From assembly GCA_032718475.1 (NCBI GenBank), contig JAUCBJ010002454.1, forward strand, positions 43,521-107,520: a stretch of DNA of 64,000 nt, written 5' to 3'. Below the pieces are notes generated by a model that saw nothing but the letters and a program-made list of their open reading frames with translations, did no database searches and was not told the origin of the DNA. The stretch comes from Nemertoderma westbladi. Taxonomy: Eukaryota; Animalia; Xenacoelomorpha. Position 1 is the first letter of the stretch, and every line of letters begins with the position of its first letter. Below, in pieces: positions 9,001 to 64,000 of the stretch. The position numbers were made by a program, and so were the translations under genes.

Positions 9001-9947
9001 TTGGTACCATTGGATACTTACCCTGGGATATTATATCTCCTCGTTTTGGTACCATTGGATCCTTACCTGGGATATTGTATCTCCTCGTTTCGGTACCATT
9101 GGATCCTTACCTGGGATATTGTATCTACTCGTTTTGGTACCATTGGATCCTTACCTGGGATATTATATCTCCTCGTTTTGGTACCATTGGATCCTTACCT
9201 GGGATATTATATCTCCTCGTTTTGGTACCATTGGATCCTTACCTGGGATATTGTATCTACTCGTTTTGGTACCATTGGATCCTTACCTGGGATATTATAT
9301 ATCCTCGTTTTGGTACCATTAGATCCTTACCTGAGATATTATATCTCCAAAGTTATTCGTTTTGGAACCATTGGATCCTTACCTGGGATATTATATCTCC
9401 AAAGTTATTCGTTTTGGTACCATTGGTTCCTTACCTTGGATATTATATCTCCTCGTTTTGGTACCATTGGATCCTTACCTGGGATATTGTATCTACTCGT
9501 TTTGGTACCACTGGATCCTTACCTGGGATATTATATCTTCAAAGTTATTCGTTTTGGTACCATTGGATACTTACCTGAGATATTATATCTCCTCGTTTTG
9601 GTACCACTGGATCCTTACCGGGGATATTATACCTCCAAAGTTATTCGTTTTGGTACCATTGGATCCTTACCTGGGATATTATATCTCCTCGTTTTGGTAC
9701 CATTGGATCCTTACCTGGGATATTATATCTCCAAAGTTATTCGTTTTGGTACCATTGGATCCTTACCTTGGATATTATATCTCCTCGTTTTGGTACCATT
9801 GGATCCTTACCTGGGATATTGTATCTACTCGTTTTGGTACCATTGGATCCTTACCTGGGATATTATATCTCCTCTTTTTGGTACCACTGGATCCTTACCT
9901 GAGATATTATATCTCCAAAGTTATTCGTTTTGGTACCATTGGATCCT
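9001..9947. repeat. Minisatellite of mixed 44-bp and 52-bp units (~20 copies)
   Basis: Unit ttggtaccattggatccttacctgggatattatatctcc[aaagttat]tcgtt. The overlapping plus-strand ORFs are repeat artefacts. Confidence 0.95.
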
Positions 9948-9995
9948 TTTCGATTCACTATTTTGACTAAAGTTGTTTCATCACTCGAATGAATC
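9899..9995 (-). CDS. Candidate internal exon (IHSSDETTLVKIVNRKGSNGTKTNNFGDIISQ), scrib tail or an adjacent minus-strand gene
   Basis: Acceptor tatcaatttag (AG at 9997-9996), 97 nt open in phase 2 to phase 0, donor CAG|GTAAGG at 9898. The phase fits the candidate exon at 11885-11980. No homology support. Confidence 0.4.
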
Positions 9996-10637
9996 CTAAA
10001 TTGATATAAAACGTAACTTATATTAAGTTTATTCAATATACTTTGTGAGGATTAGTTGAATATTATAATGTAATGATTTGATTATTCCTTTCGATATAAG
10101 ATGGGAGTAAAATGGTGTAATTTTCAGCCGCGTCCGTTTTGGTCTCAAAAAAATAGAACTTAATTATTCACCTTAATATTGTCATGTTTATTAATATTAT
10201 TTGCTCCATAAATATTCGGCAATACAAATGTAAAAATGCAAATGTTAAATATTACGGAATAAAATAAATAACTTACACAACGTTTAGTCTAATAATTTAC
10301 GGTAATTATTTAGATAGCAAATCAAGTTTTAGGAAAATTTTCTGATTTATAGAGAATCAACAAAATATCAGTCACCAGGTGCAAATATTTTCGGGAAAGG
10401 TGTAACTTCGGGTGTTCGGCGCTCGGGGAAGCTCGGACTCAACATGACGCATCTGGGTGCGTCAATATTAATGTTAATTTAACTACTTTCGGTCACTTAT
10501 TCCTCACTTCGCACATAATAACTTTTACAATTACTGTAGCCGTATATCTCGAATTTCGAAAAATAGCGACAAAGTTATTTCGACAACATTTTTCAAACTA
10601 TTTCTATATTTTAGGTAGTATGCAGCATGCATTATAT

Positions 10638-16600: not shown

Positions 16601-16875
16601 CTCGGTGCCTGTTGCTTAGCGGCGCACAGCTCCGTCTGTCTCTCCTGTGAGATTTCCTTCAACCGTTGTAATTCATTTAGGGACCCGTTGCTAAGGGAAC
16701 TGGATGAGTCATCTCCGTTCAAAGCGGTTTCTGCCACCACCGGTTTCCTATCTGAGTTCGTGGCTGCTCCGCTAGGTGGCGACGAATAGACCGATGCGTG
16801 GGTGTCTGGACCCGAAAGATCCACTGGTGGGTTATTGTTGCTAGTGGGGGATAATGATTCTTGTCTGGGTAGACC
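16601..16875 (-). CDS. scrib: Scribble C-terminal region exon (GLPRQESLSPTSNNNPPVDLSGPD...AKQQAP)
   Basis: Acceptor AG at 16877-16876, in phase 0 with the previous exon. The low-complexity Ser/Pro-rich frame is open. Putative donor AG|GTGTGT at 16600. Confidence 0.62.
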
Positions 16876-18289
16876 CTATTCGAGAAAATAAATAATAATC
16901 AATAGCAAATAGCCATGAATCAAGTGAATTTATGGTGGTTCGCTATTGTTGTATGAAAGCAGGGTAGACCACGCCTACCAGAGCAGCTGACTAAGTAGGC
17001 CAGCCACAACTGGGGGCGGCCTGTGCCCCAACACAAACTAGGTTGTACACCCCTAAAGGCAGTACATATGTTTAAGCCAGCTTCCACTGAGCTTTGTATT
17101 TTCCTTACTCATTAGTTTAAGGCATGTGTTTTCGATCATAATGTTGATTCATAAAGGTGATAATGTTACATATAAGTCGTAAGTAAAAAGTTTAATTGTT
17201 ACCCCAATATTATTCCTGTATATATATTTTGATAATAGTAAATCCATTATGTATTTCACAGTAATTATATTAATCGTTACTAAAAATATCTCAAATATTT
17301 GATGTTAAATATTTATTTTAATTATAAATGTGCAAATTAAACAAGAGTTAGAAAGTACGACACAATTAGCTATTGAAACGATGTATCCCATCCCATCCGT
17401 GGCGAATTCAAAATTATTTTGGCTTCAATTCGGAATTCCAACAATGTATCATAAAATATGTGGTTTTTGTTGAGATAGGTCAATGCCATTTATGTTAAGA
17501 TTTGCTTAATTTGAAACACAAAAAAAATGGCATATTAACATTATTGTAGTAATTTTAATACATATTATTAACTTGTTTAATAGGCCATTATTATTATAAT
17601 TTGTATTATAATTTATATTATTATAATTATTATTAGGGCTACTTAAACGACCTGGTTCAATTAAAGTTCAAATGAAATTATTGAATAAAATAAATTACAA
17701 TACAAGATGTAGAGACAGGCGATGGTCCCAATAATTACGACCATACATACCATTTATTCGTCTGGTATAATTGATCTCTGAATTTGTTCCAGTTTCTGTA
17801 TGTCCGCTAAGACAGTTGGATCCCACATCTGGCAGTAATACTGTAGTTTAGGGCGTATTAAGCTAGTGAAAAGTGTCATTAATGGCAACCTGTTGCTTGT
17901 GGTAAAAGTACGGAGCACCCATCCGCATAACTGAGATGCAGATTTCGAAATGGTTGCGTTGCGATGTGGAATGAGAAACTACAATTCTGGACGGATGGAT
18001 TTTGATTGCGGCGAAAGTCCCCCCCCCCCCCCCCCCTCACCCCTTTCAACCCCTATACGCAAATTTATATGGTATGAAATGAACAGTAGCAGTAGGCAGT
18101 AGCGACGATAGGACTACTAATTATTATCATGAAACTATAAACATTTGGTGGAAGAATCCCAGTATTTAATTACCTTATCACTATCGGACCGACTGAAGTT
18201 CATATTCTTCCATTTCCAAAATGAAGCCTAATTAATTAAATAATACATAATAATTAATATCCTCCATTAACGGAAAGAAAGGATTATAC

Positions 18290-20189
18290 GTAACGAACAC
18301 CCAATAGAGTACCGAACACCCAATAGAGTACCGAACACCCAATAGAGTACCCAACACCCAATAGAGTACCGAACACCCAATAGAGTACCCGACACCCAAT
18401 AGAGAACCGAACACCCAATAGAGTAACGAACAACCAATAGAGTAATGAACACCCAATAGAGTACCGAACACCGAATAGAGTACCGAACACCCAATAGAGT
18501 ACCGAACACCCAATAGAGTAACGAACACCCAATAGAGTAATGAACACCCAATAGATTACCGAACACCGAATAGAGCACCGAACACCCAATAGAGTAATGG
18601 ACACCCAATAGAGTAACGAACACCCAATAGAGTACCCGACACCCAACAGAGAACCGAACACCCAATAGAGTACCCAACACCCAATAGAGTACCGAACACC
18701 CAATAGAGTAACGAACACCCAATAGAGTACCGAACACCCAATAGAGTAACGAACACCCAATAGAGTACCGAACACCGAATAGAGTACCGAACACCCAATA
18801 GAGTACCGAACACCCAATAGAGTAACGAACACCCAATAGAGTAATGAACACCCAATAGATTACCGAACACCGAATAGAGCACCGAACACCCAATAGAGTA
18901 ATGGACACCCAATAGAGTAACGAACACCCAATAGAGTACCCGACACCCAATAGAGAACCGAACACCCAATAGAGTACCCAACACCCAATAGAGTACCGAA
19001 CACCCAATAGAGTAACGAACACCCAATAGAGTACCGAACACCCAATAGAGTAACGAACACCCAATAGAGTACCGAACACCCAATAGAGTACCGAACACCC
19101 AATAGAGTACCGAACACCCAATAGAGTACCGAACACCCAATAGAGTACCGAACACCCAATAGAGTAACGAACACCCAATAGAGTACCGAACACCCAATAG
19201 AGTACCGAACACCCAATAGAGTACCGAACACCGAATAGAGTAATGAACACCCAATAGAGTAATGAACACCCAATAGAGAAATGAACACCCAATAGAGTAA
19301 TGAACACCCAATAGAGTAATGAACACCCAATAGAGTAATGAACACCCAATAGAGTACCGAACACCGAATAGAGTACCGAACACCCAATAGAGTAATGAAC
19401 ACCCAATAGAGTACCGAACACCCAATAGAGTACCGAACACCCAATAGAGTAACGAACACCCAATAGAGTACTGAACACCCAATAGAGTACCGAACACCCA
19501 ATAGAGTAACGAACACCCAATAGAGTACCGAACACCGAATAGAGTACCGAACACCCAATAGAGTACCGAACACCCAATAGAGTAACGAACACCCAATAGA
19601 GTACTGAACACCCAATAGAGTACCGAACACCCAATAGAGTACCGAACACCGAATAGAGTAACGAACACCCAATAGAGTACCGAACACCGAATAGAGTACC
19701 GAACACCCAATAGAGTACCGAACACCCAATAGAGTACTGAACACCCAATAGAGTACCGAACACCCAATAGAGTACCGAACACCCAATAGAGTACCGAACA
19801 CCCAATAGAGTACCGAACACCCAATAGGGTAACGAACACCCAATAGAGTACCGAACACCCAATAGAGTACCGAACACCCAATAGAGTACCGAACACCCAA
19901 TAGGGTAACGAACACCCAATAGAGTACCGAACACCCAATAGAGTACCGAACACCCAATAGAGTACCGAACACCCAATAGAGTACCGAACACCCAATAGAG
20001 TACCGAACACCCAATAGGGTAACGAACACCCAATAGAGTACCGAACACCCAATAGAGTACCGAACACCCAATAGGGTAACGAACACCCAATAGAGTACCG
20101 AACACCCAATAGAGTACCGAACACCCAATAGAGTACCGAACATCCAATAGAGTACCTAACACCCAATAGAGTACCGAACACTCAATAGA
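18290..20189. repeat. 19-bp minisatellite (~100 copies), intronic
   Basis: Unit acccaatagagtaccgaac with point variants. It produces the spurious 19-aa-periodic minus-strand ORFs. Confidence 0.97.
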
Positions 20190-20200
20190 AAGCTACTTAC

Positions 20201-20260
20201 AGATTTAATCGCCTTGGCCTTCCAATCAAATTCCGCTATTTCTTGTTCAAGTTCAGCCGC
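20201..20260 (-). CDS. scrib: Scribble exon (AAELEQEIAEFDWKAKAIKS)
   Basis: Acceptor tattttag, 60 nt in phase 0/0, donor GTAAGT (20200-20195). It is in frame with both flanking exons. Confidence 0.7.
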
Positions 20261-22921: not shown

Positions 22922-23113
22922 CTTGGCAAATTCCTCTAAATCAGCGTTACTGCAGTCGGTATCGGATTCCGAAGAATCCAGACTGGCGTTGCTGTCGTAC
23001 GCCGGCAACGATTGAAAACCGTCACATAGCAACAGCTGTAAACGAGGTCCAGACGAACGTAATGCTTGCACAGCGTGGGCGTGAGTGACTCCAAGCATAG
23101 AGACCCCGTTAAC
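22922..23113 (-). CDS. scrib: Scribble exon: C-terminal half of PDZ4 (VNGVSMLGVTHAHAVQALRSSGPRLQLLLCDGF...LEEFAK)
   Basis: Acceptor tttgtag (AG at 23115-23114), 192 nt in phase 0/0, donor AAG|GTGAGG. It completes LKVGQRLLE|VNG from exon 52405-52632. The CDGF ending is typical of Scribble PDZ4. Confidence 0.92.
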
Positions 23114-26100
23114 CTACAAAGTAAATATAGACGTGAGTGACTCCAACCAAAGAGACCCCGTTAACCTACAAAGTAAATATAGACGTGAGTGACTCCAACC
23201 AAAGAGACCCCGTTAACCTACAAAGTAAATACAGACGTGAGTGACTCCAACCAAAGAGACCCCGTTAACCTACAAAGTAAATATAGACGTAAGTGACTCC
23301 AACCAAAGAGACCCCGTTAACCTACAAAGTAAATATAGACGTGAGTGACTCCAACCAAAGAGACCCCGTTAACCTACAAAGTAAATATAGACGTGAGTGA
23401 CTCCAACCAAAGAGACCCCGTTAACCTACAAAGTAAATATAGACGTGAGTGACTCCAACCAAAGAGACCCCGTTAACCTACAAAGTAAATATAGACGTGA
23501 GTGACTCCAACCAAAGAGACCCCGTTAACCTACAAAGTAAATACAGACGTGAGTGACTCCAACCAAAGAGACCCCGTTAACCTACAAAGTAAATATAGAC
23601 GTAAGTGACTCCAACCAAAGAGACCACGTTAACCTACAAAGTAAATATAGACGTGAGTGACTCCAACCAAAGAGACCCCGTTAACCTACAAAGTAAATAT
23701 AGACGTGAGTGACTCCAACCAAAGAGACCCCGTTAACCTACAAAGTAAATATAGACGTGAGTGACTCCAACCAAAGAGACCCCGTTAACCTACAAAGTAA
23801 ATATAGACGTGAGTGACTCCAACCAAAGAGACCCCGTTAACCTACAAAGTAAATATAGACGTGAGTGACTCCAACCAAAGAGACCCCGTTAACCTACAAA
23901 GTAAATATAGACGTGAGTGACTCCAACCAAAGAGCCCCCATTAACCTACAAAGTAAATATAGACGTAAGTGACTCCAACCAAAGAGACCCCGTTAACCTA
24001 CAAAGTAAATATAGACGTGAGTGACTCCAACCAAAGAGACCCCGTTAACCTACAAAGTAAATATAGACGTGAGTGACTCCAACCAAAGAGACCCCGTTAA
24101 CCTACAAAGTAAATATAGACGTGAGTGACTCCAACCAAAGAGACCCCGTTAACCTACAAAGTAAATATAGACGTGAGTGACTCCAACCAAAGAGACCCCG
24201 TTAACCTACAAAGTAAATATAGACGTGAGTGACTCCAACCAAAGAGCCCCCATTAACCTACAAAGTAAATATAGACGTAAGTGACTCCAACCAAAGAGAC
24301 CCCGTTAACCTACAAAGTAAATATAGACGTGAGTGACTCCAACCAAAGAGACCCCGTTAACCTACAAAGTAAATATAGACGTGAGTGACTCCAACCAAAG
24401 AGACCCCGTTAACCTACAAAGTAAATATAGACGTGAGTGACTCCAACCAAAGAGACCCCGTTAACCTACAAAGTAAATATAGAGGTGAGTGACTCCAACC
24501 AAAGAGACCCCGTTAACCTACAAAGTAAATATAGACGTGAGTGACTCCAACCAAAGAGACCCCGTTAACCTACAAAGTAAATACAGACGTGAGTGACTCC
24601 AACCAAAGAGACCCCGTTAACCTACAAAGTAAATACAGACGTGAGTGACTCCAACCAAAGAGACTCCGTTAACCTACAAAGTAAATATAGACGTGAGTGA
24701 CTCCAACCAAAGAGACCCCGTTAATCTACAAAGTAAATATAGACGTGAGTGACTCCAACCAAAGAGACCACGTTAACCTACAAAGTAAATATAGACGTGA
24801 GTGACTCCAACCAAAGAGACCCCGTTAACCTACAAAGTAAATATAGACGTGAGTGACTCCAACCAAAGAGACCACGTTAACCTACAAAGTAAATATAGAC
24901 GTGAGTGACTCCAACCAAAGAGACCCCGTTAACCTACAAAGTAAATATAGACGTGAGTGACTCCAACCAAAGAGACCCCGTTAACCTACAAAGTAAATAT
25001 AGAGGTGAGTGACTCCAACCAAAGAGACCCCGTTAACCTACAAAGTAAATATAGACGTGAGTGACTCCAACCAAAGAGACCCCGTTAACCTACAAAGTAA
25101 ATACAGACGTGAGTGACTCCAACCAAAGAGACCCCGTTAACCTACAAAGTAAATACAGACGTGAGTGACTCCAACCAAAGAGACTCCGTTAACCTACAAA
25201 GTAAATATAGACGTGAGTGACTCCAACCAAAGAGACCCCGTTAATCTACAAAGTAAATATAGACGTGAGTGACTCCAACCAAAGAGACCACGTTAACCTA
25301 CAAAGTAAATATAGACGTGAGTGACTCCAACCAAAGAGACCCCGTTAACCTACAAAGTAAATATAGACGTGAGTGACTCCAACCAAAGAGACCACGTTAA
25401 CCTACAAAGTAAATATAGACGTGAGTGACTCCAACCAAAGAGACCCCGTTAACCTACAAAGTAAATATAGAGGTGAGTGACTCCAACCAAAGAGACCCCG
25501 TTAACCTACAAAGTAAATATAGACGTGAGTGACTCCAACCAAAGAGACCCCGTTAACCTACAAAGTAAATACAGACGTGAGTGACTCCAACCAAAGAGAC
25601 CCCGTTAACCTACAAAGTAAATATAGACGTGAGTGACTCCAACCAAAGAGACCCCGTTAACCTACAAAGTAAATATAGACGTGAGTGACTCCAACCAGAG
25701 AACCCGTTAACCTACAAAGTAAATATAGACGTGAGTGACTCCAACCAAAGAGACCCCGTTAACCTACAAAGTAAATACAGACGTGAGTGACTCCAACCAA
25801 AGAGACCCCGTTAACCTACAAAGTAAATACAGACGTGAGTGACTCCAACCAAAGAGACCCCGTTAACCTACAAAGTAAATACAGACGTGAGTGACTCCAA
25901 CCAAAGAGACCCCGTTAACCTACAAAGTAAATACAGACGTGAGTGACTCCAACCAAAGAGACTCCGTTAACCTACAAAGTAAATATAGACGTGAGTGACT
26001 CCAACCAAAGAGACCCCGTTAATCTACAAAGTAAATATAGACGTGAGTGACTCCAACCAAAGAGACCACGTTAACCTACAAAGTAAATATAGACGTGAGT

Positions 26101-29100
26101 GACTCCAACCAAAGAGACCCCGTTAACCTACAAAGTAAATATAGACGTGAGTGACTCCAACCAAAGAGACCACGTTAACCTACAAAGTAAATATAGACGT
26201 GAGTGACTCCAACCAAAGAGACCCCGTTAACCTACAAAGTAAATATAGACGTGAGTGACTCCAACCAAAGAGACCCCGTTAGCCTACAAAGTAAATATAG
26301 ACGTGAGTGACTCCAACCAAAGAGACCCCGTTAACCTACAAAGTAAATACAGACGTGAGTGACTCCAACCAAAGAGACCCCGTTAACCTACAAAGTAAAT
26401 ATAGACGTGAGTGACTCCAACCAAAGAGACCCCGTTAATCTACAAAGTAAATATAGACGTGAGTGACTCCAACCAAAGAGACCCCGTTAATCTACAAAGT
26501 AAATACAGACGTGAGTGACTCCAACCAAAGAGACCCCGTTAACCTACAAAGTAAATATAGACGTGAGTGACTCCATCCAAAGAGACTCCGTTAATCTACA
26601 AAGTAAATATAGACGTGAGTGACTCCAACCAAAGAGACCCCGTTAACCTACAAAGTAAATATAGACGTGAGTGACTCCAACCAAAGAGACCACGTTAACC
26701 TACAAAGTAAATATAGGCGTGAGTGACTCCAACCAAAGAGACTCCGTTAACCTACAAAGTAAATATAGACGTGAGTGACTCCAACCAAAGAGACCCCGTT
26801 AACCTACAAAGTAAATATAGACGTGAGTGACTCCAACCAAAGAGACCCCGTTAACCTACAAAGTAAATACAGACGTGAGTGACTCCAACCAAAGAGACCC
26901 CGTTAACCTACAAAGTAAATATAGACGTGAGTGACTCCAACCAAAGAGACCCCGTTAACCTACAAAGTAAATACAGACGTGAGTGACTCCAACCAAAGAG
27001 ACCCCGTTAACCTACAAAGTAAATATAGACGTGAGTGACTCCAACCAAAGAGACCCCGTTAACCTACAAAGTAAATATAGACGTGAGTGACTCCAACCAA
27101 AGAGACCCCGTTAACCTACAAAGTAAATATAGACGTGAGTGACTCCAACCAAAGAGACTCCGTTAACCTACAAAGTAAATATAGACGTGAGTGACTCCAA
27201 CCAAAGAGACCCCGTTAACCTACAAAGTAAATATAGACGTGAGTGACTCCAACCAAAGAGACCCCGTTAACCTACAAAGTAAATACAGACGTGAGTGACT
27301 CCAACCAAAGAGACCCCGTTAACCTACAAAGTAAATATAGACGTGAGTGACTCCAACCAAAGAGACCCCGTTAACCTACAAAGTAAATATAGACGTGAGT
27401 GACTCCAACCAAAGAGACCCCGTTAACCTACAAAGTAAATATAGACGTGAGTGACTCCAACCAAAGAGACCCCGTTAACCTACAAAGTAAATATAGACGT
27501 GAGTGACTCCAACCAAAGAGACCCCGTTAACCTACAAAGTAAATATAGACGTGAGTGACTCCAACCAAAGAGACCCCGTTAACCTACAAAGTAAATATAG
27601 ACGTGAGTGACTCCAACCAAAGAGACCCCGTTAACCTACAAAGTAAATACAGACGTGAGTGACTCCAACCAAAGAGACCCCGTTAACCTACAAAGTAAAT
27701 ATAGACGTGAGTGACTCCAACCAAAGAGACCCCGTTAACCTACAAAGTAAATATAGACGTGAGTGACTCCAACCAAAGAGACCCCGTTAACCTACAAAGT
27801 AAATATAGACGTGAGTGACTCCAACCAAAGAGACCCCGTTAACCTACAAAGTAAATATAGACGTGAGTGACTCCAACCAAAGAGACCCCGTTAACCTACA
27901 AAGTAAATATAGACGTGAGTGACTCCAACCAAAGAGACCCCGTTAACCTACAAAGTAAATATAGACGTGAGTGACTCCAACCAAAGAGACCCCGTTAACC
28001 TACAAAGTAAATACAGACGTGAGTGACTCCAACCAAAGAGACCCCGTTAACCTACAAAGTAAATATAGACGTGAGTGACTCCAACCAAAGAGACCCCGTT
28101 AACCTACAAAGTAAATACAGACGTGAGTGACTCCAACCAAAGAGACCCCGTTAACCTACAAAGTAAATATAGACGTGAGTGACTCCAACCAAAGAGACCC
28201 CGTTAACCTACAAAGTAAATATAGACGTGAGTGACTCCAACCAAAGAGACCCCGTTAACCTACAAAGTAAATATAGACGTGAGTGACTCCAACCAAAGAG
28301 ACCCCGTTAACCTACAAAGTAAATATAGACGTGAGTGACTCCAACCAAAGAGACCCCGTTAACCTACAAAGTAAATATAGACGTGAGTGACTCCAACCAA
28401 AGAGACCCCGTTAACCTACAAAGTAAATATAGACGTGAGTGACTCCAACCAAAGAGACCCCGTTAACCTACAAAGTAAATACAGACGTGAGTGACTCCAA
28501 CCAAAGAGACCCCGTTAACCTACAAAGTAAATATAGACGTGAGTGACTCCAACCAAAGAGACCCCGTTAACCTACAAAGTAAATATAGACGTGAGTGACT
28601 CCAACCAAAGAGACCCCGTTAACCTACAAAGTAAATATAGACGTGAGTGACTCCAACCAAAGAGACCCCGTTAACCTACAAAGTAAATATAGACGTGAGT
28701 GACTCCAACCAAAGAGACCCCGTTAACCTACAAAGTAAATATAGACGTGAGTGACTCCAACCAAAGAGACCCCGTTAACCTACAAAGTAAATATAGACGT
28801 GAGTGACTCCAACCAAAGAGACCCCGTTAACCTACAAAGTAAATATAGACGTGAGTGACTCCAACCAAAGAGACCCCGTTAACCTACAAAGTAAATATAG
28901 ACGTGAGTGACTCCAACCAAAGAGACCCCGTTAACCTACAAAGTAAATACAGACGTGAGTGACTCCAACCAAAGAGACCCCGTTAACCTACAAAGTAAAT
29001 ACAGACGTGAGTGACTCCAACCAAAGAGACCCCGTTAACCTACAAAGTAAATATAGACGTGAGTGACTCCAACCAAAGAGACCCCGTTAACCTACAAAGT

Positions 29101-41975: not shown

Positions 41976-42907
41976 GGCTAAGTTAATCAACATTCACAGA
42001 TCATGACACTGAATTTATTTTCAATATGTTATACGATAATTGTATCCCATTAATAATACCACCAAAATGTATCTGGTACGGTCTACAGTAAGAGCCTAAA
42101 GGAACATCTATAAAAGATTTGTTTCGCTGTTCGCGTGACTTACCTTCGATATCAACTGCAATAAGTGCCTTAATTAACTGCATATCATTATTTGTATGAG
42201 CTAATAATTGATGTATCTAATTATTTGCTCACTATAACCTGTTCTTCTAGTGTAAACAGTGCAATCTATGATAGTCTACTTTAACTTATTGCCTTGTATA
42301 TTTGCTGAATATCCAAACCATATATATAAACCCAACTAATTCTCATCTAACACAAATATATCATAATTTTTATTATAATTACAAAACATAATCCTATCCC
42401 TGCAATTCCATTAAAATATTCGAATTGGGGGCAGTGGCCAGTATCTCAAAGTCAGAAAATAATTTATAAGAATCACTTTAAATAAAAGATTTTAATAAAC
42501 CTTGTTTCATAATTCTTAGGCTTATTTATTTCTTTAGTAGTAATTATTTTTTGAGCGACTTTTTAATCAGCAATTATTTCGACGAATTGTTTTACACACC
42601 CGACTCCCGTTTATTACTGTAAAACTCACTCGCTGCCCTACTGTTTCTACTATTCACACACAATGATATTTGTTTCTATTCTCGAAAATGAGGATAAAAT
42701 ATCAAACAAAATTGTAATTAATTTATCTGTCTAACAAAAAAATGTATACTTTTTAAAAAAATACTAATAGTTATTAACTGCTGCTAAATATTAAATAATA
42801 TATATATATTTTGAAGAAATTGAGTTGCATTATTGTACATTTTCCAAATTTCCCTGATATCTGTTTGCAGCTGCGATTCCAGGCGTAGCCTACTCTCTGT
42901 TACCTGT

Positions 42908-44483
42908 ATGTCTCTCAATCCTGCATTCGTATCTGGCAATGACCAAGAACCACCCCAAGTTAACTTACTCTATGTGGAAGAGAAAAAGAATGAGCCAATG
43001 CTTATTGATGAAATCTCATCTGAGAACTGCGCCGACAAGGTAAGAGGCGATTTCCATTTGAACAAGTTATTAGGGCGAGTAAATAATGCGAGCCATCAGC
43101 GAAATGTTATAATTATAATTAAATTGTTGGCTAGATGGCTTGCAGCTTTTGCTGCACGAAGCCACTCGGTCCGCATCCTCTGGCCTTCAACATTCAAGGA
43201 TGAACTCCGTGTAGGCTATGGGTACGTTCACACATAAACAGTAAACTTTCAATATGCAACTATCAAAATCCACATTTCCTGTTCTCTCTTACTTGAAAGT
43301 TGAAAGCTGGCATTTCTAGCTTTGATAACCAATCAGAAGTAACAACGATATACCTATTCCTATTGAATGAATATCGTAGTTATCTGAAAGTTAAAAGTTC
43401 ATGTGCGAATAAACCTCATATGTTTAAAAGCACATATAGGTATCTATATAGTTATAGCCCACCATAGATATTCGGTATGTGATAATTAATAAATGTCTAC
43501 AAACTGGAATGATGTAGCACCGAAGTTTTTTATTAAAACACCTTTTGATGGTCTTTTGTCTAATTTTTTTTCCTTAAAGTGTCTTATTTGTCCGCATTTT
43601 TGGGGATATAAAAGTGAATTTTTAAAAGTAAAAATAATTATGAACTGCCACTATTGCTGCCATTTATTTATTCTGACAGATATTTTATTTATGTTTTTAG
43701 ATTGTTTCCAAACTCCGCATAAATAATCCAACAATACGTGCATGTTTGTCTGAGTGTTTGGCGACCTTCATTCTCTTATTAATTGGCAATGGATCTGTGG
43801 CACAATCCGTTCTGAGCAGAGGGACACTTGGCTCGCCCCTATCTATACAAATATCTTGGGGTTTTGCAGTAACATTGGCTGTTTACTTCACAAATGGATT
43901 GAGTGGCGGCCACATAAACCCAGCGATATCCTTAGCAATGTTCGCTTTAGGGAAGATCAACTGGAGGCAACTAGTGGGGTACACGGTCGCGCAGTTTCTT
44001 GGTGCGTTCATTGCGTCACCACTATTATATGCAGTTTATTGGGACGCATTCAACGAGTTCGACGGCGGTATCCGTCAGGCTTTTGGACCAAACGGTACAG
44101 CTGGTATATTCGCCACCTATCCTACTGAGTGGCTAACTGTGGGAGGCGGGGTACTCGATCAGGTTGTAGCTACTGCGGTTCTAGCTGCGACTGTATGCGC
44201 GGTCACTGACCCTTCCAACAAGGTCCCTAAAGGGGTTGAACCCGTACTCGTTGGGTTCATGGTGATTCTACTTGGTACAGGTCTCGGTTTGAACTGTGGT
44301 TATCCACTCAACCCCGCTCGGGATTTCTCTCCCCGGCTGTTTATGTCGCTGGCCGGCTGGGGTTCGGAGGTTTGGATGACAGCCAATGGGGTACATTGGT
44401 GGTGGGTGCCAGTAGTCGGACCATACATAGGTGGTCTAGTAGGAGTATTCTTATATAAAGTCATTGTTCCTATGCATAATTAG
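42908..44483 (+). CDS. Aquaglyceroporin (AQP3/7/9/10-like), copy 1; exons 42908-43039 and 43701-44483, ~304 aa
   Basis: Motifs SGGHINPA and GYPLNPARD (Asp after NPAR is the glyceroporin signature), GIFATYP and WWWVPVVGP. The phase-0 intron runs AAG|GTAAGA...tttttag|ATT. Exon 1 has the same length in copy 2. Confidence 0.93.
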
Positions 44484-51895: not shown

Positions 51896-52404
51896 ATTAA
51901 TTGTAAATACAAACAAGTACTGGATTACAGTCTCGTGCTGCGCGAAGGCCCACGAACGCGTTTACGGATGCAAAACAGAGAAGCACCCTGGTTAGTCACT
52001 TTAAAGCATTCGTGCCGAAACGTAAACTCCCTTAGCCTCCTATTAATATAGGCAACCTACCACAAGGCCAAGCTAGCATAATCGTTTCGCCTTGCACAAT
52101 GGATTAATAGCGATGTTTGTAAGAAATTCGCATAGAGAAACACTTTTATTGGTTTCCCCCAAACTAATGTCATGTAAAACTTAATTAGAGCAGGTTAGTC
52201 CCCAAAGAAGTAAAAAGTATCATACGGGGTCATAACAGGAAAGTCTCTTTTAAGTTATTTGTGTACCTTCTGATAATTTATTTATTTGCGACACCCGGTT
52301 ACCAAGGTGATAACGAACGCAGGTTCGCCAAAGTAAACCCCAATGAATCTCATATAAGAACTCATCTACTACAGTATTATGTGTTATAATGCTATGAAAC
52401 TCAC

Positions 52405-52632
52405 CTCCAATAGCCGCTGTCCGACCTTCAGTCGACCCTCGTTGACTACAGTGTCTGATCGTGTTACCTTGGTAACGAATATACCGTCGTCCGAGTGCTC
52501 TAGCGGGTTGCCTGGCGACGGGGCTCCTACCCCGCCCCTGACAGCGAATCCCAGCTTCCGACCGGAGGCCCGGGGTAGAGTCAACTCAACCAGTCCTTTT
52601 GGAGGCGGGTCGTGTTGGACTACCAACTGCAC
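52405..52632 (-). CDS. scrib: Scribble exon: end of PDZ3, linker and N-terminal half of PDZ4
   Basis: VQLVVQHDPPPKGLVELTLPRASGRKLGFAVRGG...GNPLEHSDDGIFVTKV...GRLKVGQRLLE matches the Scribble PDZ3-PDZ4 tandem. 228 nt in phase 0/0, donor GAG|GTGAGT. Confidence 0.93.
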
Positions 52633-52877
52633 CTGGGGGGGGGGGGGGGGGGGGGGGGGGTATTGGGAGACTAACTATTATCAATAAGTAAGGAATAATG
52701 GAATACACGCCAAGGTTACCCAATCCATGGAAGCTGCGAGATGGAAATGTAACCGGAGGAGTAAAAGGAAAGATTAGGATAGTGAGAGTAATCAACCTAG
52801 GGAGCAAGAGGAGTGCCCATCTTGACTTTATCTTACTATGAAGGTAAAACAACGGAGCCCATATAATGATAACTTAC

Positions 52878-53236
52878 TGTTGATGAGGCTGACACTAAGG
52901 CCTGTACGGCCTGCTGGTGGGTCGCCCTGGCAACATTGATCCCGTTCACTTCTAGAATTCGATCGCCAATCCGCAACTGAGAGCGGGACGCGGAACCCCC
53001 GCGGACCACCTTGGAGATGAAGACCCCCGGCAGGCCGTCGCCGAAGGGCTGCGATGCGTGATCCACGCCCCCCACGATAGACAGACCCAAGGGACCCGCA
53101 GACTTTACCAGGGTCACCTCCTCCATGGTTGGCGTCTCGGACGTATCGCCGGGACTAGATCGGTCTACGCCGGGGCTACAACGTTTCAGTATAGATCGGC
53201 CCTCGGTGGAAGGTGATGGGGACACGATAGAGGCAT
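52878..53236 (-). CDS. scrib: Scribble exon: linker plus PDZ3
   Basis: EEVTLVKSAGPLGLSIVGGVDHASQPFGDGLPGVFISKV...LRIGDRILEVNG...ATHQQAV closely matches Scribble PDZ3 (GPLGLSIVGGxDH..PFG). Acceptor ccttccag, donor GTAAGT. Confidence 0.95.
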
Positions 53237-53396: not shown

Positions 53397-53474
53397 CTTG
53401 GGCTCCAGGCGAAGTGTCGGAATCGCGAATTAGTTTAATTCTTCTAGAAACTTTAAGACTGACACCTTGGGTAC
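53397..53474 (-). CDS. scrib: Scribble exon: probable end of PDZ2 (TQGVSLKVSRRIKLIRDSDTSPGAQ)
   Basis: Acceptor tttgtttgcag, 78 nt in phase 1/1, donor AAG|GTTAGT. It is in frame with the PDZ3 exon, and VSLKVSR resembles a final PDZ beta strand. Confidence 0.72.
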
Positions 53475-53487
53475 CTGCAAACAAAGG

Positions 53488-56400
53488 CCCGGGTCACTCA
53501 TAAACGGATAACTACGTCCCGGGTCACACATAAACATTCAACTTTCGGATAACTACGTCCCGGTTCACACATAAACATTCAACTTTCGGATAACTACGTC
53601 CCGGTTCGCACATAAACATTCAACTTTCGGATAACTACGTCCCGGTTCACACATAAACATTCAACTTTCGGATAACTACGTCCCGGTTCACACATAAACA
53701 TTCAACTTTCGGATAACACGTCCCGGTTCACACATAAACATTCAACTTTCGGATAACTACGTCCCGGTTCACATAAACATTCAACTTTCGGATAACTACG
53801 TCCCGGTTCACACATAAACATTCAACCTTCAGATAACTACGTTCCGGTTCACACATAAACATTCAACTTTCGGATAACTACGTCCCGGTTCACATAAACA
53901 TTCAACTTTCGGATAACTACGTCCCGGTTCACACATAAACATTCAACTTTCGGATAACTACGTCCCGGTTCACACATAAACATTCAACTTTCGGATAACT
54001 ACGTCCTGGTTCACACATAAACATTCAACTTTCGGATAACACGTCCCGGTTCACACATAAACATTCAACTTTCGGATAACTACGTCCCGGTTCACATAAA
54101 CATTCAACTTTCGGATAACTACGTTCCGGTTCACACATAAACATTCAACTTTCGGATAACTACGTCCCGGTTCACACATAAACATTCAACTTTCGGATAA
54201 CTACGTCCCGGTTCACACATAAACATTCAACTTTCAGATAACTACGTCCTGGTTCACATAAACATTCAACTTTCGGATAACTACGTCCCGGTTCACACAT
54301 AAACATTCAACTTTCGGATAACACGTCCCGGTTCACACATAAACATTCAACTTTCTGATAACTACGTCCCGGTTCACACATAAACATTCAACTTTCGGAT
54401 AACACGTCCCGGTTCACACATAAACATTCAACTTTCTGATAACTACGTCCCGGTTCACACATAAACATTCAACTTTCAGATAACTACGTCCTGGTTCACA
54501 TAAACATTCAACTTTCGGATAACTACGTCCCGGTTCACACATAAACATTCAACTTTCGGATAACACGTCCCGGTTCACACATAAACATTCAACTTTCTGA
54601 TAACTACGTCCCGGTTCACACATAAACATTCAACCTTCAGATAACTACGTTCCGGTTCACACATAAACATTCAACTTTCGGATAACTACGTCCCGGTTCA
54701 CATAAACATTCAACTTTCGGATAACTACGTCCCGGTTCACACATAAACATTCAACTTTCGGATAACACGTCCCGGTTCACACATAAACATTCAACTTTCT
54801 GATAACTACGTCCCGGTTCACACATAAACATTCAACTTTCGGATAACACGTCCCGGTTCACACATAAACATTCAACTTTCTGATAACTACGTCCCGGTTC
54901 ACACATAAACATTCAACTTTCAGATAACTACGTCCTGGTTCACATAAACATTCAACTTTCGGATAACTACGTCCCGGTTCACACATAAACATTCAACTTT
55001 CGGATAACACGTCCCGGTTCACACATAAACATTCAACTTTCTGATAACTACGTCCCGGTTCACACATAAACATTCAACCTTCAGATAACTACGTTCCGGT
55101 TCACACATAAACATTCAACTTTCGGATAACTACGTCCCGGTTCACATAAACATTCAACTTTCGGATAACTACGTCCCGGTTCACACATAAACATTCAGCT
55201 TTCGGATAACTACGTCCCGGTTCACACATAAACATTCAACTTTCGGATAACTACGTCCTGGTTCACACATAAACATTCAACTTTCGGATAACTACGTCCC
55301 GGTTCACACATAAACATTCAACTTTCGGATAACTACGTCCCGGTTCACACATAAACATTCAACTTTCGGATAACTACGTCCCGGTTCACACATAAACATT
55401 CAACTTTCGGATAACTACGTCCCGGTTCACACATAAACATTCAACTTTCGGATAACTACGTCCCGGTTCACATAAACATTCAACTTTCGGATAACTACGT
55501 CCCGGTTCACACATAAACATTCAACTTTCGGATAACTACGTCCCGGTTCACACATAAACATTCAACTTTCGGATAACTACGTCCCGGTTCACACATAAAC
55601 ATTCAACTTTCGGATAACTACGTCCCGGTTCACACATAAACATTCAACTTTCGGATAACTACGTCCCGGTTCACACATAAACATTCAACTTTCGGATAAC
55701 TACGTCCCGGTTCACACATAAACATTCAACTTTCGGATAACTACGTCCCGGTTCACATAAACATTCAACTTTCGGATAACTACGTCCCGGTTCACACATA
55801 AACATTCAACTTTCGGATAACTACGTCCCGGTTCACACATAAACATTCAACTTTCGGATAACACGTCCCGGTTCACACATAAACATTCAACTTTCGGATA
55901 ACTACGTCCCGGTTCACACATAAACATTCAACTTTCGGATAACTACGTCCCGGTTCACACATAAACATTCAACTTTCGGATAACTACGTCCCGGTTCACA
56001 TAAACATTCAACTTTCGGATAACTACGTCCCGGTTCACACATAAACATTCAACTTTCGGATAACTACGTCCCGGTTCACACATAAACATTCAACTTTCGG
56101 ATAACTACGTCCCGGTTCACACATAAACATTCAACTTTCGGATAACTACGTCCGGGTTCACACATAAACATTCAACTTTCGGATAACTACGTCCCGGTTC
56201 ACATAAACATTCAACTTTCGGATAACTACGTCCCGGTTCACACATAAACATTCAACTTTCGGATAACTACGTCCCGGTTCACACATAAACATTCAACTTT
56301 CGGATAACTACGTCCCGGTTCACACATAAACATTCAACTTTCGGATAACTACGTCCCGGTTCACATAAACATTCAACTTTCGGATAACTACGTCCCGGTT

Positions 56401-59400
56401 CACACATAAACATTCAACTTTCGGATAACTACGTCCCGGTTCACACATAAACATTCAACTTTCGGATAACTACGTCCCGGTTCACACATAAACATTCAAC
56501 TTTCGGATAACTACGTCCCGGTTCACACATAAACATTCAACTTTCGGATAACTACGTCCCGGTTCACACATAAACATTCAACTTTCGGATAACTACGTCC
56601 TGGTTCACACATAAACATTCAACTTTCGGATAACTACGTCCCGGTTCACACATAAACATTCAACTTTCGGATAACTACGTCCCGGTTCACACATAAACAT
56701 TCAACTTTCGGATAACTACGTCCCGGTTCACACATAAACATTCAACTTTCGGATAACTACGTCCTGGTTCACACATAAACATTCAACTTTCGGATAACTA
56801 CGTCCCGGTTCACACATAAACATTCAACTTTCGGATAACTACGTCCCGGTTCACACATAAACATTCAACTTTCGGATAACTACGTCCCGGTTCCACATAA
56901 ACATTCAACTTTCGGATAACTACGTCCCGGTTCACACATAAACATTCAACTTTCGGATAACTACGTCCGGGTTCACACATAAACATTCAACTTTCGGATA
57001 ACTACGTCCCGGTTCACATAAACATTCAACTTTCGGATAACTACGTCCCGGTTCACACATAAACATTCAACTTTCGGATAACTACGTCCCGGTTCACACA
57101 TAAACATTCAACTTTCGGATAACTACGTCCCGGTTCACACATAAACATTCAACTTTCGGATAACTACGTCCCGGTTCACATAAACATTCAACTTTCGGAT
57201 AACTACGTCCCGGTTCACACATAAACATTCAACTTTCGGATAACTACGTCCCGGTTCACACATAAACATTCAACTTTCGGATAACACGTCCCGGTTCACA
57301 CATAAACATTCAACTTTCGGATAACTACGTCCCGGTTCACACATAAACATTCAACTTTCGGATAACTACGTCCCGGTTCACATAAACATTCAACTTTCGG
57401 ATAACTACGTCCCGGTTCACATAAACATTCAACTTTCGGATAACTACGTCCCGGTTCACACATAAACATTCAACTTTCGGATAACTACGTCCCGGTTCAC
57501 ACATAAACATTCAACTTTCGGATAACTACGTCCCGGTTCACACATAAACATTCAACTTTCGGATAACTACGTCCCGGGTTCACACATAAACATTCAACGT
57601 TCGGATAACTACGTCCCGGTTCACACATAAACATTCAACTTTCGGATAACACGTCCCGGTTCACACATAAACATTCAACTTTCGGATAACTACGTCCCGG
57701 TTCACATAAACATTCAACTTTCGGATAACTACGTCCCGGTTCACACATAAACATTCAACTTTCGGATAACTACGTCCCGGTTCACACATAAACATTCAAC
57801 TTTCGGATAACACGTCCCGGTTCACACATAAACATTCAACTTTCGGATAACTACGTCCCGGTTCACACATAAACATTCAACTTTCGGATAACTACGTTCC
57901 GGTTCACACATAAACATTCAACCTTCAGATAACTACGTTCCGGTTCACACATAAACATTCAACTTTCGGATAACTACGTCCCGGTTCACACATAAACATT
58001 CAACTTTCGGATAACACGTCCCGGTTCACACATAAACATTCAACTTTCGGATAACTACGTCCCGGTTCACATAAACATTCAACTTTCGGATAACTACGTC
58101 CCGGTTCACACATAAACATTCAACTTTCGGATAACTACGTCCCGGTTCACACATAAACATTCAACTTTCGGATAACACGTCCCGGTTCACACATAAACAT
58201 TCAACTTTCGGATAACTACGTCCCGGTTCACACATAAACATTCAACTTTCGCATAACACGTCCCGGTTCACACATAAACATTCAACTTTCGGATAACTAC
58301 GTCCCGGTTCACATAAACATTCAACTTTCGGATAACTACGTCCCGGTTCACACATAAACATTCAACCTTCAGATAACTACGTTCCGGTTCACACATAAAC
58401 ATTCAACTTTCGGATAACTACGTCCCGGTTCACATAAACATTCAACTTTCGGATAACTACGTCCCGGTTCACACATAAACATTCAACTTTCGGATAACTA
58501 CGTCCCGGTTCACACATAAACATTCAACTTTCGGATAACACGTCCCGGTTCACACATAAACATTCAACTTTCGGATAACTACGTCCCGGTTCACATAAAC
58601 ATTCAACTTTCGGATAACTACGTCCCGGTTCACACATAAACATTCAACTTTCGGATAACTACGTTCCGGTTCACACATAAACATTCAACCTTCAGATAAC
58701 TACGTTCCGGTTCACACATAAACATTCAACTTTCGGATAACTACGTCCCGGTTCACACATAAACATTCAACTTTCGGATAACTACGTCCCGGTTCACACA
58801 TAAACATTCAACTTTCGGATAACTACGTCCCGGTTCACATAAACATTCAACTTTCGGATAACTACGTCCCGGTTCACACATAAACATTCAACTTTCGGAT
58901 AACTACGTCCCGGTTCACACATAAACATTCAACTTTCGGATAACTACGTCCCGGTTCACACATAAACATTCAACTTTCGGATAACTACGTCCCGGTTCAC
59001 ATAAACATTCAACTTTCGGATAACTACGTCCCGGTTCACACATAAACATTCAACTTTCGGATAACTACGTCCCGGTTCACACATAAACATTCAACTTTCG
59101 GATAACTACGTCCCGGTTCACACATAAACATTCAACTTTCGGATAACTACGTCCCGGTTCACACATAAACATTCAACTTTCGGATAACTACGTCCCGGTT
59201 CACACATAAACATTCAACTTTCGGATAACTACGTCCCGGTTCACACATAAACATTCAACTTTCGGATAACTACGTCCCGGTTCACACATAAACATTCAAC
59301 TTTCGGATAACTACGTCCCGGTTCACACATAAACATTCAACTTTCGGATAACTACGTCCCGGTTCACACATAAACATTCAACTTTCGGATAACTACGTCC

Positions 59401-62400
59401 CGGTTCACACATAAACATTCAACTTTCGGATAACTACGTCCCGGTTCACACATAAACATTCAACTTTCGGATAACTACGTCCCGGTTCACACATAAACAT
59501 TCAACTTTCGGATAACTACGTCCCGGTTCACACATAAACATTCAACTTTCGGATAACTACGTCCCGGTTCCACATAAACATTCAACTTTCGGATAACTAC
59601 GTCCCGGTTCACACATAAACATTCAACTTTCGGATAACTACGTCCCGGTTCACACATAAACATTCAACTTTCGGATAACTACGTCCCGGTTCACACATAA
59701 ACATTCAACTTTCGGATAACTACGTCCCGGTTCACACATAAACATTCAACTTTCGGATAACTACGTCCCGGTTCACACATAAACATTCAACTTTCGGATA
59801 ACTACGTCCCGGTTCACACATAAACATTCAACTTTCGGATAACTACGTCCCGGTTCACACATAAACATTCAACTTTCGGATAACTACGTCCCGGTTCACA
59901 CATAAACATTCAACTTTCGGATAACTACGTCCCGGTTCACACATAAACATTCAACTTTCGGATAACTACGTCCCGGTTCACACATAAACATTCAACTTTC
60001 GGATAACTACGTCCCGGTTCACACATAAACATTCAACTTTCGGATAACTACGTCCCGGTTCACACATAAACATTCAACTTTCGGATAACTACGTCCCGGT
60101 TCACACATAAACATTCAACTTTCGGATAACTACGTCCCGGTTCACACATAAACATTCAACTTTCGGATAACTACGTCCCGGTTCACACATAAACATTCAA
60201 CTTTCGGATAACTACGTCCCGGTTCACACATAAACATTCAACTTTCGGATAACTACGTCCCGGTTCACACATAAACATTCAACTTTCGGATAACTACGTC
60301 CCGGTTCACACATAAACATTCAACTTTCGGATAACTACGTCCCGGTTCACACATAAACATTCAACTTTCGGATAACTACGTCCCGGTTCACACATAAACA
60401 TTCAACTTTCGGATAACTACGTCCCGGTTCACACATAAACATTCAACTTTCGGATAACTACGTCCCGGTTCACACATAAACATTCAACTTTCGGATAACT
60501 ACGTCCCGGTTCACACATAAACATTCAACTTTCGGATAACTACGTCCCGGTTCACACATAAACATTCAACTTTCGGATAACTACGTCCCGGTTCACACAT
60601 AAACATTCAACTTTCGGATAACTACGTCCCGGTTCACACATAAACATTCAACTTTCGGATAACTACGTCCCGGTTCACACATAAACATTCAACTTTCGGA
60701 TAACTACGTCCCGGTTCACACATAAACATTCAACTTTCGGATAACTACGTCCCGGTTCACACATAAACATTCAACTTTCGGATAACTACGTCCCGGTTCA
60801 CACATAAACATTCAACTTTCGGATAACTACGTCCCGGTTCACACATAAACATTCAACTTTCGGATAACTACGTCCCGGTTCACACATAAACATTCAACTT
60901 TCGGATAACTACGTCCCGGTTCACACATAAACATTCAACTTTCGGATAACTACGTCCCGGTTCACACATAAACATTCAACTTTCGGATAACTACGTCCCG
61001 GTTCACACATAAACATTCAACTTTCGGATAACTACGTCCCGGTTCACACATAAACATTCAACTTTCGGATAACTACGTCCCGGTTCACACATAAACATTC
61101 AACTTTCGGATAACTACGTCCCGGTTCACACATAAACATTCAACTTTCGGATAACTACGTCCCGGTTCACACATAAACATTCAACTTTCGGATAACTACG
61201 TCCCGGTTCACACATAAACATTCAACTTTCGGATAACTACGTCCCGGTTCACACATAAACATTCAACTTTCGGATAACTACGTCCCGGTTCACACATAAA
61301 CATTCAACTTTCGGATAACTACGTCCCGGTTCACACATAAACATTCAACTTTCGGATAACTACGTCCCGGTTCACACATAAACATTCAACTTTCGGATAA
61401 CTACGTCCCGGTTCACACATAAACATTCAACTTTCGGATAACTACGTCCCGGTTCACACATAAACATTCAACTTTCGGATAACTACGTCCCGGTTCACAC
61501 ATAAACATTCAACTTTCGGATAACTACGTCCCGGTTCACACATAAACATTCAACTTTCGGATAACTACGTCCCGGTTCACACATAAACATTCAACTTTCG
61601 GATAACTACGTCCCGGTTCACACATAAACATTCAACTTTCGGATAACTACGTCCCGGTTCACACATAAACATTCAACTTTCGGATAACTACGTCCCGGTT
61701 CACACATAAACATTCAACTTTCGGATAACTACGTCCCGGTTCACACATAAACATTCAACTTTCGGATAACTACGTCCCGGTTCACACATAAACATTCAAC
61801 TTTCGGATAACTACGTCCCGGTTCACACATAAACATTCAACTTTCGGATAACTACGTCCCGGTTCACACATAAACATTCAACTTTCGGATAACTACGTCC
61901 CGGTTCACACATAAACATTCAACTTTCGGATAACTACGTCCCGGTTCACACATAAACATTCAACTTTCGGATAACTACGTCCCGGTTCACACATAAACAT
62001 TCAACTTTCGGATAACTACGTCCCGGTTCACACATAAACATTCAACTTTCGGATAACTACGTCCCGGTTCACACATAAACATTCAACTTTCGGATAACTA
62101 CGTCCCGGTTCACACATAAACATTCAACTTTCGGATAACTACGTCCCGGTTCACACATAAACATTCAACTTTCGGATAACTACGTCCCGGTTCACACATA
62201 AACATTCAACTTTCGGATAACTACGTCCCGGTTCACACATAAACATTCAACTTTCGGATAACTACGTCCCGGTTCACACATAAACATTCAACTTTCGGAT
62301 AACTACGTCCCGGTTCACACATAAACATTCAACTTTCGGATAACTACGTCCCGGTTCACACATAAACATTCAACTTTCGGATAACTACGTCCCGGTTCAC

Positions 62401-64000
62401 ACATAAACATTCAACTTTCGGATAACTACGTCCCGGTTCACACATAAACATTCAACTTTCGGATAACTACGTCCCGGTTCACACATAAACATTCAACTTT
62501 CGGATAACTACGTCCCGGTTCACACATAAACATTCAACTTTCGGATAACTACGTCCCGGTTCACACATAAACATTCAACTTTCGGATAACTACGTCCCGG
62601 TTCACACATAAACATTCAACTTTCGGATAACTACGTCCCGGTTCACACATAAACATTCAACTTTCGGATAACTACGTCCCGGTTCACACATAAACATTCA
62701 ACTTTCGGATAACTACGTCCCGGTTCACACATAAACATTCAACTTTCGGATAACTACGTCCCGGTTCACACATAAACATTCAACTTTCGGATAACTACGT
62801 CCCGGTTCACACATAAACATTCAACTTTCGGATAACTACGTCCCGGTTCACACATAAACATTCAACTTTCGGATAACTACGTCCCGGTTCACACATAAAC
62901 ATTCAACTTTCGGATAACTACGTCCCGGTTCACACATAAACATTCAACTTTCGGATAACTACGTCCCGGTTCACACATAAACATTCAACTTTCGGATAAC
63001 TACGTCCCGGTTCACACATAAACATTCAACTTTCGGATAACTACGTCCCGGTTCACACATAAACATTCAACTTTCGGATAACTACGTCCCGGTTCACACA
63101 TAAACATTCAACTTTCGGATAACTACGTCCCGGTTCACACATAAACATTCAACTTTCGGATAACTACGTCCCGGTTCACACATAAACATTCAACTTTCGG
63201 ATAACTACGTCCCGGTTCACACATAAACATTCAACTTTCGGATAACTACGTCCCGGTTCACACATAAACATTCAACTTTCGGATAACTACGTCCCGGTTC
63301 ACACATAAACATTCAACTTTCGGATAACTACGTCCCGGTTCACACATAAACATTCAACTTTCGGATAACTACGTCCCGGTTCACATAAACATTCAACTTT
63401 CGGATAACTACGTCCCGGTTCACACATAAACATTCAACTTTCGGATAACTACGTCCCGGTTCACACATAAACATTCAACTTTCGGATAACTACGTCCCGG
63501 TTCACACATAAACATTCAACTTTCGGATAACTACGTCCCGGTTCACACATAAACATTCAACTTTCGGATAACTACGTCCCGGTTCACACATAAACATTCA
63601 ACTTTCGGATAACTACGTCCCGGTTCACACATAAACATTCAACTTTCGGATAACTACGTCCCGGTTCACACATAAACATTCAACTTTCGGATAACTACGT
63701 CCCGGTTCACACATAAACATTCAACTTTCGGATAACTACGTCCCGGTTCACACATAAACATTCAACTTTCGGATAACTACGTCCCGGTTCACACATAAAC
63801 ATTCAACTTTCGGATAACTACGTCCCGGTTCACACATAAACATTCAACTTTCGGATAACTACGTCCCGGTTCACACATAAACATTCAACTTTCGGATAAC
63901 TACGTCCCGGTTCACACATAAACATTCAACTTTCGGATAACTACGTCCGGTTCACACATAAACATTCAACTTTCGGATAACTACGTCCCGGTTCACACAT
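53488..64000. repeat. 41-bp satellite, >250 copies, runs off the window; probably intronic in scrib
   Basis: Unit ggttcacacataaacattcaactttcggataactacgtccc, with 39-bp deletion variants. It is nearly invariant beyond ~59 kb. Confidence 0.98.

Follow-up and report, generated by a model that had tools for sequence, protein, structure and literature searches.

Introduction

In lancelets, the "mirage" minisatellites of Adh3, the globin genes BflGb6 and BflGb9, troponin C and PGBD5 are tandem duplications across an exon-intron boundary and, in the available text of the two reports, mirages of both borders leave splicing and the mRNA undisturbed (PMC3087553, PMC3902484). A comparable arrangement is found in intron 7 of the human F7 gene, where a 37-bp variable number tandem repeat (VNTR) offers 5 to 9 identical repeated donors, of which only the most upstream is used according to the accessible part of the article (PMC1557585). 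Satellites are also known to derive from the ends of transposons or MITEs (miniature inverted-repeat transposable elements), the examples in the available text being Xstir, from the Xmix MITE, and TIR-220, from Tetris (PMC9659126). Here we analyse a 64,000-nt stretch of the genome of Nemertoderma westbladi (GenBank assembly GCA_032718475.1, contig JAUCBJ010002454.1, positions 43,521 to 107,520; hereafter, the window), in which a minus-strand Scribble gene is accompanied by four large tandem arrays that were delimited with Tandem Repeats Finder (TRF) and make up 32,263 of the 64,000 bases. The four arrays likely arose by three routes, each of a known kind: two are tandem copies of an exon border (mirages), one is probably a transposon end that was amplified, and one is the likely filler of a presumably tiny intron; all of them would be neutral by-products tolerated by splicing and not the work of one new mechanism, a reading to which we assign a probability of about 0.6.

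An acceptor mirage and a probable donor mirage in the Scribble gene

Coordinates are positions within the window, and every Scribble splice junction is predicted from the sequence. The four arrays are as follows.

23080..41976, minus strand, 52-bp acceptor mirage, 363 copies over 18.9 kb (TRF and unit alignment to exon D)
9001..9946 (9001-9916 by TRF), minus strand, 44/52-bp donor mirage (unit comparison to candidate exon H)
53486..64000 (53505-64000 by TRF), 41-bp array, about 257-258 copies, open at the window end (TRF and an edge copy)
18290..20189, 19-bp array, 100 copies (TRF)

The exons of the gene model, in the order of transcription, are the following.

53397..53474, minus strand, predicted exon A (78 nt), weakly similar to the PDZ2 end
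52878..53236, minus strand, predicted exon B, PDZ3 by homology
52405..52632, minus strand, predicted exon C, first part of PDZ4 by homology
22922..23113, minus strand, exon D, remainder of PDZ4, tblastn match for 120 of 120 Scribble queries
20201..20260, minus strand, exon E, 60 nt, aligned inside the Scribble blastp match
18174..18227, minus strand, candidate exon F, 54 nt, from splice signals and frame
16601..16875, minus strand, candidate exon G, 275 nt, GC 0.53, from splice signals and frame
9899..9995, minus strand, candidate exon H, 97 nt, from splice signals and frame, phase fitting exon G

The 52-bp unit consists of the last 18 nt of the intron and the first 34 nt of exon D and thereby spans the intron-exon boundary of an exon confirmed by homology. 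An initial interpretation, made from the letters of the window without database searches (the sequence-only reading), had placed an acceptor within this array, and its last copy does provide the acceptor of exon D (the intron ending at 23114), which continues the fourth PDZ domain. Upstream of this authentic site the AG is intact in 362 of 362 decoy acceptors, any of which, if used, would lead to a stop at codon 19. Selection keeping the decoy AGs was considered and rejected as unproven: only 20 of the 52 unit positions vary at all, and the probability of an intact AG by chance is about 0.37. The array shows the marks of concerted evolution, namely uniform units (192 of the 358 full-length units are identical to the consensus, with 36 distinct units and on average 0.6 differences over the 52 bases), recurring blocks of variants, and a decayed distal edge; no gradient of divergence toward exon D was found over 12 bins (0.13-1.03). 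The consensus equals exon D at 32 of the 34 exonic positions, the authentic copy departing from it at unit positions 16 and 19. Both exon alleles are present in three inner copies (40481, 32783 and 32575) and one of them in copy 39857, which points to shared ancestry of, or exchange between, exon and array. Copy 39857 reads SLL, the state of 47 of the 56 homologues scored, while exon D reads SML and the array SLV.

The second, probable mirage repeats a donor. In its 52-nt form, the unit of the 44/52-bp array corresponds to the last 48 nt of candidate exon H and the first 4 nt of the intron, spanning the border of an exon that was recognized by splice signals and phase, and the candidate donor at 9898, which the sequence-only reading had located within the array, is its first copy and the donor of that exon. 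The array comprises 19 units, five of 52 nt, thirteen of 44 nt (with an 8-nt deletion) and one of 45 nt; the five 52-nt units agree with the last 48 nt of exon H at all but 1-3 bases, and GTAAG is kept in all 20 donor copies (19 decoys and the candidate authentic one). If used, the first extra donor would lead to a stop within 12 codons. Exon H itself is likely real, because (i) its phase fits that of exon G, (ii) a good acceptor with an open frame in the needed phase accompanied only 48 of 3,014 control GT sites, and (iii) donors as strong as that of exon H, as scored with an approximate matrix, numbered 3 in 57,200 control nt.

As far as the available text of the lancelet reports allows comparison, the 52-mer and the 44/52-mer resemble the mirages described there in crossing either border, in repeating the AG or the GT and in having decayed edge copies, and the 52-bp unit falls within the 10-72 bp range given for Adh3. 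They differ in copy number, with 363 in the 52-mer (18.9 kb) and 3 and 6 in BflGb6, in that one gene carries both an acceptor and a donor mirage, and in that the splicing outcome here is predicted by analogy. The 44/52-bp array is also similar to the F7 VNTR, as the accessible part of that article presents it, since in both the junction of exon and intron falls within the first unit and the donor is repeated; unlike F7 with its 5-9 donors, it offers 20, with 48 of the 52 nt of the unit being exonic and with two length classes. The F7 repeat concerns donors and, in the text available, has no bearing on acceptors. By analogy with the described systems, the exon-nearest splice-site copy is probably the one that is chosen.

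The locus is probably a case of two further mirages, one very large, and two ordinary arrays. The idea of satellites born at their own locus, put forward in the sequence-only reading, holds for the two mirages, both being copies of an exon border (that of a candidate exon in the 44/52-mer). That reading had also drawn a parallel with the satellite-filled introns of Drosophila Y genes, which are reportedly megabase-sized (PMC6508621). The likeness is that tandem repeats make up most of three Scribble introns; intron gigantism on the scale of hundreds of kb to Mb was not found, as the largest complete intron measures 29,291 nt (the 41-mer intron runs off the window) and the units are complex, and the lancelet mirages and the F7 VNTR are the closer systems. 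The delay in transcription that the sequence-only reading had thought possible is likewise unsupported.

A probable transposon end and a probable tiny intron

The 41-bp array ends, as had been noticed from the sequence, close to an acceptor, namely 11 nt from acceptor A (the intron ending at 53475), a distance that counts a decayed edge copy ending at 53486; from the edge reported by TRF the distance is 30 nt. Its unit is related to a further element of the window.

43221..43412, MITE-like inverted-repeat element, about 190 bp, ends approximate, both arms matching the 41-bp unit

A nested aquaporin gene carries this element in its first intron, 10 kb from the 41-bp array. The unit is identical to its opposite inverted arms at 31 of 35 and 22 of 25 bases, with a score of 27 where the best of 300 dinucleotide shuffles reached 17, a match to the element's terminal inverted repeats, while the units of the other three arrays scored within their shuffles. 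No clear target-site duplication was found in the bases flanking the element, and a degenerate motif common to the 41-mer and the arms had 0 matches in metagenome contigs. Similarly to Xstir and TIR-220 in the accessible text, the array shares its unit with both inverted arms of a short non-coding element; in contrast to those satellites, a single related element was detected for it, itself located in the window. The 41-mer is probably transposon-derived rather than locus-born, and its simplest reading would be an amplified transposon end inserted into the pyrimidine tract of acceptor A. The two exon-nearest copies (53497 and 53527) carry a change, present in 0 of the 254 others, that improves a branch-point-like motif lying 20 nt from the AG of acceptor A; this variant may supply the branch point of that acceptor.

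The 19-bp array, correctly noted beforehand as standing beside a donor, starts 11 nt after donor 20200, with the next acceptor at a distance of about 60 nt. Of the 1,973 nt of intron E-F it occupies 1,900; without the extra copies this intron shrinks to 87 nt, so that the array is close to both sites. To judge from this geometry, the 19-mer likely is the filling of a tiny intron. Neither it nor the 41-mer spans a boundary, both stopping 11 nt short of the splice site, and in the comparison of units with the adjacent exon, proposed as a check in the sequence-only reading, only the 52-mer and the 44/52-mer align.

These origins do not support a single process seeding locus-specific satellites, as the sequence-only reading had envisaged, given the 41-mer in the arms of a MITE-like element and the 19-mer in an intron of 87 nt when collapsed. 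It had further expected each unit at a single locus and had named dispersed units as evidence against itself: the 19-mer has no match elsewhere in the window, while the 41-mer unit is also present in both arms of the element at 43221-43412 and, being found in this second element, partly contradicts that reading on its own terms.

Placement of the arrays at splice sites

Two of the arrays overlap a predicted splice site, and the other two end 11 nt from one. The earlier impression that this placement is non-random was confirmed within the window, all four arrays overlapping or adjoining predicted sites against a uniform null of about 1e-6. In this null, each array was collapsed to one unit, leaving 31,902 bases; the probability of all four arrays lying within 12 nt of a site was 6e-7 with 16 sites and 1.5e-6 with 20, and a 30-nt threshold gave 1.4e-6 to 3.4e-6. 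Without the 44/52-bp array, the least secure of the four, the value was 1.7e-5, and with exons A-E only, it was 4e-6. Among the small TRF clusters, 1 of 15 lay within 12 nt of a site, compared with 4 of 4 large arrays (Fisher p=0.0013), the one site-adjacent cluster being the C run that forms the pyrimidine tract of acceptor C. Since the distance thresholds were chosen post hoc and the window was picked for its pattern out of a very large scan, the true significance is lower than these values. The four units had been described as unrelated, and indeed none of the six unit pairs scored above shuffles. That the sites near the arrays share one strand is also correct, all of them being on the minus strand, although this does not count as independent evidence because a single gene supplies the sites: of the 20 internal splice-site candidates, 16 lie on the minus strand, and the same-strand probability is 0.8^4, or about 0.4.

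Proposed course and alternative explanations

The history of the arrays can be described in four steps. (i) Pieces of 52 bp spanning acceptor D and the candidate donor H were duplicated in place, as the units of these two arrays document; slippage or microhomology repair may have been the route, as suggested by short similar sequences at the borders. (ii) Unequal exchange would then have expanded and homogenized the copies, leaving blocks of variants and decayed edges. (iii) Judging from precedent, the spliceosome would take the exon-nearest copy, and the use of a decoy would add an early stop, whereupon the mis-spliced RNA would be degraded. (iv) The clustering at exon edges, the weakest step, could result from opportunity and survival without a dedicated mechanism, since in short introns every array is close to a site, arrays that span a border have only the intron to grow into, deletions across the exon-side flank would be purged, and the window was chosen for its pattern.

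Several observations weigh against this course. For the uniform null to rise to 0.06, the space able to seed arrays would have to be as small as 1.6 of the 31.9 kb, and recognizable repeats or retrotransposons occupy only 8.8 kb of the 31.9 kb in the window; the tiny-intron account covers the 19-mer but would remove the signal only at that seeding space of about 1.6 kb. The donor mirage is young (1-3 differences), so that the adjoining intron G-H was probably not tiny, and inside introns the small repeats have remained small, with 14 of the 15 clusters more than 500 nt away from any site. A transposon end as close as 11 nt to an acceptor would lie in a zone that mammals keep clear, according to the portion of the report available (PMC3088655). 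The precedents also have far fewer copies (5-9 in F7, 3 and 6 in BflGb6), and the silent skipping of 362 decoys is accordingly an extrapolation.

The placement signal could alternatively reflect one transcription- or splicing-coupled process, acting through R-loops, polymerase pausing, or breaks and recombination, that preferentially expands exon-border repeats in this lineage, whatever their seed. Such a process would account for the contrast between the large arrays and the small clusters given above, for the excess of G over C on the sense strand of all four arrays (joint probability 0.044) and for the GGG run per unit on that strand in three of the four (against 0.11-0.26 in background windows of unit size); a leaning of tandem repeats to intron ends is, moreover, described for 31 plants and algae, in the part of the report that is available (PMC3887541). 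For the R-loops, nucleosome boundaries and delayed transcription of the sequence-only reading, the G excess is the only hint. We nevertheless consider a coupled process unlikely, if worth keeping in view, because the evidence comes from a single window chosen for the pattern with thresholds set afterwards, the combined skew test gave p=0.17, the sense strand of the 44/52-bp array has CCC in place of GGG, and three kinds of seed are found among four arrays. In a stronger form of this proposal, which we regard as rather improbable, exon edges in this lineage would be hotspots that blow any tandem seed, be it plain intron sequence, a transposon end or a splice-site duplicate, into a multi-kb array by a splicing- or R-loop-coupled route, with the G-rich strand on the transcript, and the spliceosome would find the real acceptor behind 362 decoys over 18.9 kb. 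A further possibility is that some of the pattern is artefactual, the array lengths being assembly errors or exons F and H not being real, which would leave fewer arrays at true sites. Exons F, G and H indeed match no homologue among 59 Scribble C-termini; multi-base haplotypes, however, recur in blocks along the 52-mer and the 19-mer, exon H is backed by the control GT sites and control donors described above, and the null values without exon H or with exons A-E only stay low, all of which makes an artefact quite improbable.

The possibility that the 52-mer has a function, as a chain of recursive splice sites or by tuning the Scribble level through decay of mis-spliced RNA or delay, also has to be weighed. 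Each 52-nt unit runs from GT to AG, so that after use of a decoy the remaining units could be removed by re-splicing; besides the intact AG of every decoy, AG/GT is present at 310 of the 362 anchors, and a branch-point-like motif stands about 21 nt ahead of each AG. A duplicated AG/GT site can form a working intron with an efficiency of 6-16%, as stated in the accessible part of one report (PMC3265369). The regenerated donor, however, scores only -0.04 or -1.5 by a rough matrix, below the 1.9-8.0 of the eight gene donors, and lacks the G at +5 that is present in 9 of the 10 donors of the window; GT is lost at 52 of the 362 anchors, and the intact AG is unremarkable in view of how few unit positions vary. 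Exon D starts with the same six bases, and an active donor there would excise the real exon. A recursive (ratchet) site is an acceptor directly followed by a strong donor, and by that definition the array, with its weak donor and incomplete AG/GT, does not qualify. The literature searched, which does not extend to most subscription journals, yielded no study of recursive splicing across an array of tandem repeats. Taken together, these points make a function of this kind highly improbable.

If the combination of mirages, transposon end and intron filler is accepted, the locus is a very large case of a repeat type already described, and a single conserved polarity gene bears mirages of both an acceptor and a donor. 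It lends itself to a natural test of 3' splice-site choice: should RNA show that splicing uses the last acceptor alone, the 362 intact ones upstream would speak against a simple scanning for the first AG. A genome-wide excess of large arrays at exon edges over a matched null, if true, would link the expansion of satellites with splicing or transcription and would explain intron growth in repeat-rich invertebrates, which one window cannot show. No genome-wide test of minisatellite position relative to splice sites in an invertebrate was found in the same literature, with the same restriction as to subscription journals.

The host gene

The minus-strand gene codes for PDZ domains. Among the best 120 matches to exon B, all named ones are Scribble, and the others are unnamed products with the same domains. 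Exons A-F read in one frame, and 305 residues align to vertebrate Scribble with 42% identity (blastp); all eight predicted exons together form a 1,343-nt model in a single frame with no stops. Direct tblastn support is available for exons B, C and D, exons A and E lie, weakly, within the blastp alignment, and candidate exons F, G and H follow from splice signals and from phase or frame. When 59 Scribble C-termini, taken from 64 of 150 representative matches above 150 bits, were compared by tblastn and blastp, no homology was detected for exons F, G and H or for later exons, and a terminal Scribble exon was not found within the window. The stretch 43137-43215 was considered as an exon and discarded, since it is not followed by a GT and exons C and D meet inside one PDZ domain. 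Introns A-B and B-C measure 160 and 245 nt, and the whole pyrimidine tract of acceptor C is a 26-nt C run on the sense strand (52633-52660). In the protein collections no close relative of the host is present, the best matches to the nested aquaporin being 55% identical.

Other features of the window

Intron F-G of the Scribble gene contains, on the same strand and 85 nt upstream of acceptor G, a predicted full-length gene for the U12 small nuclear RNA of the minor spliceosome (16961-17125, minus strand, 80.1 bits against a gathering threshold of 53), the Sm-site region of which departs from the model consensus. Intron C-D holds two nested, antisense aquaglyceroporin (MIP) genes of two exons each (42908-44483 and 48623-50276, plus strand); their second exons are 95.8% identical and their first exons about 81%, and about 930 nt separate the start of the first gene from the distal end of the 52-bp array. 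An intronless open reading frame of the Bcl-2 family (2571-3257, plus strand), with an in-frame 21-bp triplication near the C-terminus, may lie in a further Scribble intron, because the terminal Scribble exon was not found in the window.

Among the mobile elements, a broken non-long-terminal-repeat retrotransposon (6288-8480, minus strand) has pieces of reverse transcriptase in separate frames, and a related 3' fragment is located at 50684-51082. Several elements of foldback or MITE-like type, bearing either long inverted arms or short subterminal repeats, occur at 46114-47031 (the arms of which are marked by long G/C runs), 47281-47772, 1880-2490 and 12790-15358, and most of the small TRF clusters may belong to such elements. 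A pair of repeats at 616-691 and 51962-52037, 84% identical over 76 nt, is presumably a tRNA-derived short interspersed nuclear element (SINE), to judge from its B-box motif. A 24-nt SINE-like motif common to two places in the window had 0 matches in metagenome contigs. The second SINE-like copy is adjoined by a 53-bp triplication at 51736-51895.

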